This document shows, piece by piece, positions 25,934-28,933 of a DNA stretch of 44,055 nt. The stretch comes from a virus (Duplodnaviria > Heunggongvirae > Uroviricota > Caudoviricetes). Within the stretch, counting starts at the first letter, position 1; each line of letters starts with the position of its first letter. A model generated the notes under the pieces. That model had not been told where the DNA came from and did no database searches. It was given only the letters and a program-made list of their open reading frames with translations. The stretch spans positions 1 to 44,055 of IMG/VR virus record IMGVR_UViG_2778261667_000008. One strand, given 5' to 3'. The translations under genes were made by a program, and so were the position numbers.

Positions 25934-26100
25934 GAGCTACAGGCAATCGCCGCCTGCATATCGTGTGGTTTTGTCGCTATTCCGCACGTTCCCGCCAGTC
26001 GGTAATGCGCCAGCACAGACGTTTCCGGATCGTGATTGCAGTAGCCAGGAATTCTGACGGTGCACATCTGCCCCCGCGCCGCTTTACGTAAATCCACCAT
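25810..26100 (-). CDS. YbcO-like (DUF1364) zinc-binding phage protein
   Basis: 96 aa with CxVRIPGxC...C..C pattern resembling my recollection of DLP12 YbcO; ATG overlaps the upstream stop (TAATG). Confidence 0.55.
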   Translation of the reverse strand: MVDLRKAARGQMCTVRIPGYCNHDPETSVLAHYRLAGTCGIATKPHDMQAAIACSSCHDLIDGRVKTSDYTKEELRLMHAEGVFRTQEIWRKEGYL

Positions 26101-26699
26101 TACGCAAACTCCAGCAGCTGCGCGGCCACATTTTCGACTTGTTCCGGAGAGGAAAATTTACGGAACAGAATCCTGTTCCACAGCACATTCAGAACAGATT
26201 TATAAACCTGCTGAAACTCGGTTTCGTCCATATTCGCAAAAGCGATGGATTTCGCCCGACGCCCATGGCTACCGTCCGGATAAAAATGTTCGGTGTAAAA
26301 TCCAGCCTGAATGGTTACCCACTCGCGAAAAGCCTCAAACGACTTTAGCAATGCCGTATCCCGGGTTCTGCGTGTCGCAACTGTATTCAGATATTGCTCT
26401 GCGGCATCACTCAGGGCTGGCGTGTGTTCCCGACCAACTGATTCGCACAGGTAATCAACGAAACCAGACAGCAGTTCTCGTTCGCGAGGCGTGATCGCCC
26501 CACCGACCGGAGTCCAGTAATCGAATCCCAGTTGCAGGAGTTTGAAAAAACGCTTGTGGAATGCGTAGTTACGCACACGCTTAAAGTCTGCGTGTATCCA
26601 CTCACCTATTTTGATTTGATGCAGAAAATCGCAACTCTCCGGCGTCGCCGGGAGAAGTAAACCAGAAGAAGTTTGTTTGACCAGTTGTATATGCGCCAT
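26100..26699 (-). CDS. Nin-region hypothetical protein (DUF1367-like)
   Basis: 199 aa, ATG at 26699; position between the cargo region and the Q-like gene. Confidence 0.45.
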   Translation of the reverse strand: MAHIQLVKQTSSGLLLPATPESCDFLHQIKIGEWIHADFKRVRNYAFHKRFFKLLQLGFDYWTPVGGAITPRERELLSGFVDYLCESVGREHTPALSDAAEQYLNTVATRRTRDTALLKSFEAFREWVTIQAGFYTEHFYPDGSHGRRAKSIAFANMDETEFQQVYKSVLNVLWNRILFRKFSSPEQVENVAAQLLEFA

Positions 26700-26973
26700 T
26701 TCTCAATCTCTCGATGGCGCAGTGCAGCAGATGCCAGTTGTTCAGGCTGACGTATAAAGTATAAATAAACTGGTTCCAGTGTAAAGCCCCCACATTGATG
26801 GAATAAAAATCAAACAATAGATTGCTGGGATAAAATACAACGCTTATTATTAAAAGCGGTTAGACAAATTAAATTTTAATGTTATGCAAATCTGCCAGAT
26901 CAGCATAATATCTCATTTGAAAACCGCTGAAATAACAATCCTATCAGGATTAATCATATTAAGGTGAGTAAAT

Positions 26974-27060
26974 ATGGAAAACAACAAATCTGCACATTAC
27001 GCTCCTTTTTTATCTGTAATACTTTTTGTTTTTTGCTGTGTATGGGCATTATTTTTATAA
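26974..27060 (+). CDS. Small hydrophobic peptide (28 aa), candidate membrane peptide
   Basis: Below the ORF-track cutoff. AAGGTGAG SD 5 nt before ATG; hand translation MENNKSAHYAPFLSVILFVFCCVWALFL; AT-rich setting. Confidence 0.3.
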   Translation: MENNKSAHYAPFLSVILFVFCCVWALFL

Positions 27061-27168
27061 AAATATTCACAGATAAAATAAACTCGCCGAATCAGGTTAA
27101 GTGTGGGTGCGTTGAGGATGCCTGACACATCAGAGGCGGCGAGGGATTTCTCCCTCGCCTGGTCACTC

Positions 27169-27324
27169 TTACTCCTCAGGTTCGTAAGCTGTGAAGACAG
27201 CGACCTCCGTCTGACCGGTTCGGATTCGCACCTCGCAGAGGTCTTTCCTCGTTACCAGTGCCGTCACTATGACGGTTAAACAGATGACAATCAGTGCGAC
27301 TAACATCGCCTTTTGCTGCTTCAT
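27169..27324 (-). CDS. hokD: Hok/Gef-family type I toxin
   Basis: MKQQKAMLVALIVICLTVIVTALVTRKDLCEVRIRTGQTEVAVFTAYEPEE is near-identical to my recollection of HokD (RelF); AAGGAGAAG SD; the track ORF extends 19 codons upstream in frame; perfect 9-bp stem-loop (27138..27159) in the 3' region. Confidence 0.8.
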   Translation of the reverse strand: MKQQKAMLVALIVICLTVIVTALVTRKDLCEVRIRTGQTEVAVFTAYEPEE

Positions 27325-27955
27325 AGCCTGCTTCTCCTTGCCTTCCGGCGCGTAAGAGGCTAACCTACATGTGCAAAGCATGAAATTGGCCTCAGATTAA
27401 TGTTAAGCGTCTTGCCGGACGCGTAATGTTATCTGGGGCTTTTCTCTATCTGCCGTTGGTGTTCATGCCCGAGGCAGATAGCCTCAAGCACCCGCAGCAA
27501 TTCTACTTAACCCCCGTCACCTCGCCAATATAAAATCAATCAGAAAGGCGATCCATAAGAACAACAGCAAGACAATAAATTGCCATTACAGCCGCAATAG
27601 CTAGCGCACATTTGAGAACCAGCACGACAACCTCCTGTATTGGGCGTACACCAGTCCTGATAAATATGAGGATGTCTCGTCAGTGATTCAATGCAACTAT
27701 TGGGTATAGTTTCTGTGATTTTGTTCTGTAGAAATGGAACACAACAACCAGTCACCATCCGCTCTTCTTTAAATGCGCTAAGTCAGACACAAGCCAACAT
27801 TTTAGTTGGCTTTGAGCGTTCTGGAGATGCGACATTGCTAACAGCCTTTTGAATGAACTAATCGGGGGCTAGTCATAACGGGCATAGCAGTCTCCAAGTA
27901 AGCAAGACTTTGCCATACAGAATGGAGCTAAGTTATTCATCAAATCTCCTTAAAT

Positions 27956-28933
27956 TCATAAAGTTAAATGCGGCCCTAAATACGCCACATATATCCGCTG
28001 ATTTACTGCGTCAGCATAAAAATGTAGGCGGTAACCGTCAGGTAGTTTTACATGATTCTCGCAATAGACCTGCCGTCCATCATCTAACCAAAATATGCGC
28101 TCTTTCTTCTTTTTGGGGGCATTATTTACACTGTCCGATTCACCGCTAACTTCAGCAGCCAAACCCAAATCTCTTAAATATTCATGACGGTACTCTACAT
28201 ACTCACCTGAACGCCATTTCTCACTAAACGATTCCAACACATTTAGCGCATCTCGTGCCTTGAACAAGACATTTTGCCTAGCAGACCAACCTTGTAGACT
28301 TGTACCTATTTGATTTGACAACAAAGTGAGATGAGGAAACAAATCTGCTCTTTTCAGCCAGATATCCTTAGCAGTACTTAACAACGTATTACGATGTTGT
28401 TTGAGTTCATCTCCATGCACATCCAAGCTCGCAGAATTACTCAGATTTAAAATCGTTTCATCCCTTTGTTCTGGTATTGCATCAAGCTCGAAAACCCATA
28501 CTTTAAAATGGCTATTTGTCCAAGTAGCTAAAGCCGTAAAACTAGCAAGAAAAGTTTTAAAATAAAACGCTGCTAATAGCACCGCTTTACCTGTATCTTC
28601 CCCTGGCAAGCCAACTTCTAATACATCACCTAAAGTTTCAATATCCACGGTTTCAAAGAGAGGCTGTTTCGTTTCAAGAGACTTTAGAAATCGACACCAA
28701 TCCGCAAGTTCTGCAACTTTGCTCGCAGAGGCAAGCCAATTGCGCACAAAATATCCGTTAGCCAGCTCCAATCCCATTAGCGACTTGTCTTGATCTTCAT
28801 CGATGAGCAAAATTTTCAGCCCAGCAGTTCGGCAGACCTTAAGAACAGTAAAGAAAGCCAATAGTCCTTCATCTGCATCCTCTTTGCTAGCAAATGGCAA
28901 AGAATGATGGTTCAACACAATTCCATTACTCAT
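27956..28933 (-). CDS. Hypothetical 325-aa protein, third gene of the DUF262/ATPase operon
   Basis: ATG overlaps the stop of the upstream ATPase gene (ATGA); AT-rich; no domain recognised by eye. Confidence 0.7.
   Translation of the reverse strand: MSNGIVLNHHSLPFASKEDADEGLLAFFTVLKVCRTAGLKILLIDEDQDKSLMGLELANGYFVRNWLASASKVAELADWCRFLKSLETKQPLFETVDIETLGDVLEVGLPGEDTGKAVLLAAFYFKTFLASFTALATWTNSHFKVWVFELDAIPEQRDETILNLSNSASLDVHGDELKQHRNTLLSTAKDIWLKRADLFPHLTLLSNQIGTSLQGWSARQNVLFKARDALNVLESFSEKWRSGEYVEYRHEYLRDLGLAAEVSGESDSVNNAPKKKKERIFWLDDGRQVYCENHVKLPDGYRLHFYADAVNQRIYVAYLGPHLTL

Follow-up and report, generated by a model that had tools for sequence, protein, structure and literature searches.

The locus and its small open reading frame

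The stretch of caudoviral DNA analysed here (hereafter the window) is 44,055 nucleotides (nt) long and corresponds to positions 1 to 44,055 of IMG/VR virus record IMGVR_UViG_2778261667_000008. It contains a 469-nt gap flanked by a DUF1367 gene (26100-26699) and hokD (27169-27324), both on the - strand, and within this gap lies the small open reading frame (ORF) that is the subject of this report. The ORF is on the + strand, with its ATG at 26974-26976 and its TAA stop codon at 27058-27060, and its 28 codons specify the peptide MENNKSAHYAPFLSVILFVFCCVWALFL. It is preceded by a Shine-Dalgarno (SD)-like AAGGTGAG and a 5-nt spacer TAAAT, and an N-terminally longer version is excluded because an in-frame TGA lies three codons upstream (26965-26967). 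The G + C (GC) content of the ORF and its leader is 0.28-0.29, against 0.50-0.51 in the flanking DUF1367 gene and hokD. A 471-nt query from the window finds a perfect (100%) match in a prophage of E. coli TUM9757, in whose RefSeq record the gap between the DUF1367 gene and hokD is devoid of any annotated feature. Prodigal-type gene callers have a minimum ORF of 90 nt and the small ORF, at 87 nt, lies under it, which accounts for its lack of annotation.

Evidence for protein coding

A total of 259 loci (some contigs were fetched twice) was collected from E. coli genomes, phage records, one E. ruysiae, one Shigella and IMG/VR contigs; their classes are designated by labels (L002, L004 and so on) where they need to be told apart. 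In every genuine homologous copy the frame is open and exactly 28 codons long, which amounts to ~245 locus copies representing 23 nucleotide versions and 19 peptide variants. The only seven segments lacking the ORF were chance matches of 18-nt search patterns in unrelated DNA. The 34 variable sites in the ORF fall predominantly on codon position 3 (17 sites), followed by positions 2 (10) and 1 (7). On a minimum-spanning haplotype network, 25 of the 55 changes are synonymous when 14.8 would be expected from random placement of changes with the observed transition bias (P = 0.0024), and none creates a stop codon (P = 0.09), the joint probability of the two being 4e-4.

Comparison of three deep lineages, i.e. 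the window, L004 (from the most divergent class found in the nin region) and L190 (which lies outside that region), gave ratios of non-synonymous to synonymous change (pN/pS) in the ORF frame of 0.11 for the window and L190, 0.12 for L004 and L190, and 0.24 for the window and L004, with one-sided Fisher P values from <1e-4 to 0.006, whereas plus-strand frames 2 and 3 gave 0.7-1.5. In a six-frame control, the small-ORF frame was the sole one with both the highest synonymous count and no stop-involving changes, and the minus-strand frame that shares its third positions showed five stop-involving changes. The same substitution test led to the rejection of two overlapping candidates, a 53-codon GTG ORF (26964-27125) and a 38-codon minus-strand ORF (26954-27070). 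The most telling case for coding is L190, whose leader is almost unalignable with that of the window and whose ORF nevertheless differs by nine synonymous and only four non-synonymous changes, the latter conservative.

Variation across 72 distinct modules (Table 1) is consistent with this picture. The SD and spacer (26961-26973) have zero gap columns, the lone gap column in the ORF most likely reflects the aligner's placement of a one-base deletion in the post-stop A-run, and all ORF copies were verified to be intact despite it. In the most divergent nin-region class (L004/L005), homology to the window stops exactly at the stop codon. Taken together, the constant 28 codons, the frame-specific synonymous excess and the integrity of the ORF beside variable flanks argue that the frame is maintained for its protein product. 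On this comparative evidence, a genuine protein-coding gene is present at 26974-27060 and is subject to purifying selection.

Table 1. Features of the cassette and its surroundings in the window, with column variation across 72 distinct modules
Feature	Coordinates	Strand	Variable columns	Gap columns	Remarks
Left extension of module	26724..26842	-			common to all nin-region copies, absent in L190; minus-strand promoter-like site, weak hairpins
Near-invariant AT-rich block CTTATTATTAAAAGYGRTTAGAYAAATTAMATTTTAATGTTATGMAA	26843..26889		27%	0	left end of minimal cassette; kept in L190
Upstream block, as scored for variation	26839-26889		27%	0	
Variable AT-rich leader, presumed 5' untranslated region	26890..26960	+	69%	10	almost unalignable in L190
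SD-like AAGGTGAG	26961..26968	+			5 nt 5' of the small-ORF ATG
28-codon small ORF	26974..27060	+	40%, largely synonymous	1	polar 10-residue N-terminus MENNKSAHYA; 18-residue hydrophobic C-terminal segment reaching the last residue
Downstream segment	27061-27105		88%	6	
Hairpin region after ORF	27080..27098				degenerate in window (AAACTCGCCGAATCAGGTT), intact in other classes (AAACCCGCCGAAGCGGGTT)

These results bear on several claims of the first-pass annotation, which had been made from the letters of the window. An SD motif 5 nt before the ATG of a 28-codon ORF, in an AT-rich gap next to hok, was borne out by direct reading of the sequence. The proposed unannotated gene for a small hydrophobic peptide gains support from the network (P = 0.0024) and from pN/pS values of 0.11-0.25 found in the ORF frame only, and the 28-codon frame is conserved in the homologous regions where its loss would have counted against a gene. 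Calling the ribosome-binding site strong was an overstatement, since the AAGGTG found in most classes becomes AAAGTG or AAAGCG in the commonest, Qin-type class. The ATG itself is invariant among copies, with AAGGTG 5 nt upstream in most classes, and the SD core TAAGGTG is retained in the window and in the L002, L018, L004 and L190 classes.

The expectation by chance was estimated with 3,000 dinucleotide-preserving shuffles of 26700-27168. An ATG ORF of at least 28 codons occurred in 93% of the shuffles and one also preceded by an SD-like motif in 21%, and the further presence of an 18-residue stretch with a hydropathy of at least 2.3 reduced this to only 0.3%, a figure that holds for a single sequence and is uncorrected for the many intergenic regions that could have been picked in the first-pass annotation. 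The comparative evidence is much stronger than this single-sequence figure.

The peptide and its distribution

The hydrophobic character claimed for the 18 C-terminal residues is confirmed by a mean Kyte-Doolittle hydropathy of 2.61 for residues 11-28, and values of 2.3-2.7 were found for this segment in all 19 variants, in which exchanges are among V, I, A, L, F and C. An alignment of five class sequences shows M1, E2, N4, A7, H8, P11-F18, C21 and W24-L28 to be invariant, and rare single replacements (A7V, F12S, L13I, V15I, C21F and L26V) are seen when all 19 variants are considered. Nearly every variant has two cysteines side by side. The polar N-terminus contains one lysine and the hydrophobic stretch extends to the C-terminal residue, from which the positive-inside rule predicts a single helix with a cytoplasmic N-terminus, probably inserted in the inner membrane. 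Conservation of the polar residues E2, N4 and H8, of P11, of the adjacent cysteines and of the WALFL end suggests that the peptide would engage in a specific interaction rather than cause generic membrane damage. It would probably act on a membrane partner or on membrane integrity, with a possible benefit to the lysogen or the prophage, such as the exclusion of other phages or the modulation of a host membrane protein. The best reading is that of a new family of predicted small inner-membrane peptides encoded by prophages. Such a hydrophobic peptide may have been born de novo, and recently, from T-rich DNA; whatever its origin, the substitution pattern indicates that the small gene is now under selection.

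The minimal module (26843-27062) was found in 752 of 5,426 complete E. coli genomes (~14%), with a median of one copy that is almost always chromosomal, and it is unannotated in all 40 listed rows of these matches. None of 10 peptide variants was present in an exact look-up among ~15 billion predicted proteins. The best E-values against profile libraries were 0.046 (NCBIfam), 0.36 (Pfam) and 0.18 (PHROGs), all short of the cut-offs, and PADLOC gave no match. With tblastn, the peptide was found only in four phage records and in two chromosomes mislabelled as plasmids, all of them unannotated; carriage by plasmids was rejected on this ground, the matching 'plasmids' being chromosomes of 4.8-4.9 Mb. 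When one genome from each of 185,579 species was scanned for the peptide pattern, E. ruysiae and Shigella flexneri were the only species with a match. Within the reach of these searches, the family is thus confined to prophages of Escherichia and Shigella. A literature search with the peptide string found no paper containing the sequence among those covered. A Ribo-seq preprint on strain CFT073 (10.64898/2026.09.28.754932) lists novel small membrane proteins but no usable sequences for comparison. A counterpart in E. coli K-12 was rejected because the Qin prophage shares only the 3' end of hok and its rem is not homologous, and the K-12 small-protein catalogues are not applicable for the same reason.

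A mobile cassette with the hallmarks of a moron

The minimal mobile unit extends from ~26843 to 27060 (~220 nt) and consists of a near-invariant 47-nt AT-rich block, a variable leader, the SD and the ORF, with a GC content of 0.28 in contrast to 0.50 in the flanks. Its boundaries are recurrent. On the left, homology to the window breaks at 26724 in ~70 of 87 loci, the remainder continuing through the DUF1367 gene, while on the right it breaks at 27061 or 27087, or else continues through hok. L190 carries the cassette past the 3' end of a tail-fibre-like gene of 992 residues and is homologous to the window only from CTTATTATTAAAAG (window position 26843) onward, everything further left being unrelated. 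Upstream neighbours are either DUF1367 or a 92-residue ORF followed by ydfU, and downstream neighbours comprise several hok variants, a convergent gene for a 754-residue subtilisin-like protein (L018) and a DUF1971 gene region (L004). The hok module is separable, since thousands of genomes match only from ~27070-27085 onward and, conversely, the L004, L018 and L190 contexts have the cassette but no hok. The ORF is oriented against the flanking phage genes in every locus for which annotation or ORFs were read, and the cassette usually sits at the edge of a variable cargo region. In L018, a terminator hairpin with a 15-bp stem lies 14 nt after the stop codon of the small ORF. In hok-linked copies, the hairpin found after the ORF has its U-tract on the - strand, which identifies it as the terminator of the hok mRNA. 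The weak terminator-like hairpins of the left extension face DUF1367 or the ydfU-side genes.

In lambdoid phage genomics, morons are recognised by a foreign base composition, discrete boundaries, changes of context and an orientation opposite to that of their neighbours. Because of its distinct GC content, its recurrent breakpoints, at least three unrelated downstream and at least two upstream contexts and its opposed orientation, the cassette reads as such an element, and we infer that it is a phage moron.

Several neighbouring features deserve mention in their own right. A complete hok/mok/sok locus occupies 27169-27493 on the - strand, with hokD, an Rfam sok match (27319-27493, 111 bits) and a 70-codon overlapping ORF (27169-27381) that is consistent with mok; the hok terminator hairpin is degenerate in the window by comparison with other classes. 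Just upstream of hok/sok, at 27536-27625 on the - strand, there is a second hydrophobic small ORF, of 29 residues ((M)LVLKCALAIAAVMAIYCLAVVLMDRLSD), with a GTG start 5 nt after an AGGAGG SD (27632-27637), and it too is without annotation in the TUM9757 RefSeq record. The fetched loci contain 15 nucleotide variants of this second ORF, of which 14 are intact with conservative replacements only, several encoding an identical peptide, and one (four copies) is frameshifted. At the other end of the gap, the segment 26724-26790 (- strand) is strongly conserved and common to copies adjacent to DUF1367 and to the ydfU-side ORF. It contains a minus-strand promoter-like TTTACA-16-TATACT (26785..26758; 10/12 matches), overlapped in L018 by a terminator-like hairpin, and could be a promoter or a terminator that controls entry into the nin/Q genes.

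The cargo between the replication side and hok (27956-28933 and beyond, corresponding to 4257-6471 of L001) encodes a 325-residue hypothetical protein, an AAA ATPase and a DUF262 protein, and the same prophage position is occupied in other copies by a YobI-type P-loop nucleoside triphosphatase (NTPase), an S8-protease-like gene or DUF1971. This region beside hok resembles a variable hotspot of the defence type. Beyond the Q-like DUF1133 gene, the RefSeq prophage also has annotated tRNA-Gly and tRNA-Thr genes between an antiterminator-like gene and the holin (L001, 1056-1209).

The upstream block and expression of the small gene

The near-invariant block is the best candidate for a promoter or regulatory region. 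It is functional, being under a constraint at least equal to that on the non-synonymous sites of the ORF, and may be a promoter, an operator or both. One possible promoter reading comprises a UP-like tract, TAGACA, a 16-nt spacer and TGtTATGCA, in which the candidate -35 hexamer is one of the less constant parts of the block. An imperfect inverted repeat is also found there (26842-26855 paired with 26874-26887). An 8-bp stem (ATGTTATG / CATAAYAT) has variants whose pairing is preserved on the plus strand only. The cassette would probably be transcribed from its own promoter within this block, independently of the phage early-right operon, and hence probably in the lysogen.

The putative mRNA shows no unusual degree of structure. 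Its minimum free energy is -21.3 kcal/mol for a shuffle mean of -25.1 (z = +1.22), and its consensus fold is weak (about -5 to -6 kcal/mol, with -5.7 in one of the two analyses). A conserved RNA structure in the leader was rejected on both strands, only the 8-bp stem being constant and overall energies being weak. A 20-nt inverted repeat (80% complementary) joins the middle of the ORF (27008-27027) to the sequence after the stop codon (27059-27078), which, read on the other strand, is the hok terminator's U-tract; this repeat may be an effect of AT-richness.

Alternative explanations

As a whole, the material described above is best explained by a selected prophage moron gene for a small inner-membrane peptide, a reading in which we have moderate confidence. 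Several points weigh against it. In the L003 and L013 classes, which include the commonest (Qin-type) one, the SD is reduced to AAAGTG or AAAGCG; with 18 residues, the hydrophobic stretch is on the short side for spanning the membrane completely; a consensus promoter scan found no plus-strand sigma-70 site over threshold and the best -10 candidate, TATGCA, does not end in the usual T; diversity is confined to one genus, so that the selection tests rest on a few dozen substitutions; and the putative cellular role of the peptide is drawn from analogy with prophage morons and small membrane proteins.

In the first-pass annotation, peptides of this kind had been regarded as typical of type I toxins as well as of small regulatory membrane proteins. 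According to the former possibility, the peptide would be a new type I toxin that depolarises or permeabilises the inner membrane, and its translation would normally be blocked by a small antisense RNA, which could be encoded opposite the leader or be transcribed divergently out of the invariant block. The size and hydrophobicity of the peptide match in all 19 variants, as does an AT-rich intergenic setting in a prophage, beside hok/sok. In addition, minus-strand promoter-like sites recur at fixed positions, one with its -10 ending ~72 nt before the ATG in all classes except L190 and another (TTTCCA-16-TATGAT) overlapping the start codon, a weak minus-strand terminator-like hairpin is present at 26858..26841, and the fold of the leader's minus strand is somewhat more stable than that of shuffles (z = -2.3). 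However, promoter-like hexamers are no commoner here than in shuffles and are expected by chance at 28% GC, and L190 is without both the minus-strand -10 and the U-tail. The peptide has no toxin-family match in NCBIfam, Pfam, PHROGs or PADLOC, an Rfam search yields only the sok that belongs to hok and nothing in 26700-27100, and consensus-structure analysis shows no covarying structure on either strand. A divergent ~60-nt antitoxin RNA of the istR/orzO/ohsC kind, originating from the invariant block, was rejected because its complementarity to the mRNA is no better than in shuffles (seven classes, z from -0.4 to +1.6).

The mRNAs of the hok, tisB, zorO and ldr toxins are structured, with a sequestered SD. 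That of the small gene is, in contrast, unstructured (z = +1.2) and its SD is exposed. Moreover, the small gene is single-copy and occurs independently of hok. Three defining features of type I systems (an RNA antitoxin, an mRNA closed to translation and homology to a known family) are thus missing from the analysed locus, and the toxin half of the earlier suggestion is not supported. A perfectly complementary cis-antisense RNA may exist at the small ORF. Overall, a type I toxin is unlikely, the peptide probably not being the toxin half of an RNA-controlled toxin-antitoxin pair, and a small membrane protein that is not a toxin, with a putative role, fits better.

Equally doubtful is the idea that the peptide might be the effector of a function that has not been recognised in prophages before and is encoded at the border of the variable cargo (defence) region. 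This idea is based on the conservation and predicted membrane targeting of the peptide, on the conserved regulatory block and on the adjoining cargo (hok, DUF262/AAA ATPase, YobI-type NTPase and S8-protease-like genes). One version of it would be a new toxin family under non-classical control, e.g. by two mutually exclusive overlapping promoters in the block; in another, a membrane peptide would keep superinfecting phages out or set off abortive infection.

A role in cis, in which the act of translation or transcription matters rather than the peptide, for example by interference with the convergent hok transcript or with early-right read-through, is improbable. It would be in line with the convergence of the ORF on hok in the window and most copies, the stop codon being ~10 nt from the U-tract of the hok terminator, with the antisense orientation of the ORF relative to the phage early operon and with the 20-nt inverted repeat between the interior of the ORF and the sequence after its stop codon. 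Selection on the amino-acid sequence, apparent from the low pN/pS and from the conservation of polar N-terminal residues and of the C-terminal WALFL, would however be needless for a purely cis-acting element, and the cassette is also found in three contexts that lack hok.

Finally, the notion that there is no gene at all, conservation being that of a DNA or RNA element or merely reflecting the recent spread of one sequence in which the open frame is fortuitous, can draw on the commonness of plain ORFs of this length in shuffles (93%), on the close relatedness of most copies (23 haplotypes for ~245 locus copies) and on the absence of the peptide from the protein collections searched and of annotation in all records examined, and is nonetheless very improbable in view of the frame-specific synonymous excess and three-base periodicity of substitutions, the behaviour of L190, the absence of indels from an ORF both of whose flanks have many, the mosaic breakpoint exactly at the stop codon and the simpler explanation of the missing annotation by the 90-nt limit of gene callers.

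Significance

Small membrane peptides are systematically missed by annotation, and the present example, at 87 nt, lies just under the usual cut-off. It adds to the small proteome of prophages a new sequence family that is found in ~14% of complete E. coli genomes and displays clear purifying selection. Small genes of this kind are being discovered in prophages in some number, and the present one holds nothing contrary to expectation. The cassette of ~220 nt is a clean and compact test case that could be cloned whole. Were the peptide to affect membrane physiology, phage exclusion or prophage induction, it would represent a widespread and so far invisible factor of lysogenic conversion; were it to be without phenotype, it would still be a well-supported benchmark for small-gene finders.

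Comparison with known systems

Enterobacterial type I toxins whose RNA antitoxins are encoded in cis or divergently (Hok/Sok, Ibs/Sib, ShoB/OhsC, ZorO/OrzO, TisB/IstR-1 and Ldr/Rdl) resemble the peptide in having 19-50 residues and one dominant hydrophobic helix, and in being encoded in AT-rich intergenic spots, often on mobile elements, where they are missed by gene callers. The small ORF differs from them in that it has no sequence relationship to any of them, no detected antitoxin RNA and a single copy, and in that its leader is short, unstructured and poorly conserved rather than long, folded and SD-hiding. The peptide differs as well, since it ends in its hydrophobic segment and has no polar or charged tail after it. 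The adjacent system, hokD with mok and sok, also encodes a hydrophobic peptide in the same intergenic cargo region, but it is a separate mosaic unit starting at ~27070-27087 and bears no sequence similarity to the small ORF.

Phage morons such as lambda bor and lom, HK97 gp15 and comparable promoter-gene-terminator inserts of lambdoid phages are, like the cassette, autonomous inserts of foreign composition that lie between and against phage genes, occupy differing sites across phages and have a terminator behind them in some contexts. The cassette is far smaller than those described, and its promoter is a predicted one.

Small inner-membrane proteins that work on larger membrane proteins (MgtS, MgrB, PmrR, AcrZ, KdpF and CydX), together with uncharacterised peptides of the YohP type, offer a further parallel to the peptide itself. 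The small ORF has no homology to these proteins, is part of a prophage cassette and not of the core genome or of a partner's operon, and has no linked candidate partner, since its neighbours change between contexts. The peptide is nevertheless of similar size, with a single predicted helix, its few conserved polar residues by that helix would suit a specific protein contact, and the accessible SD of its gene is compatible with a non-toxic product.

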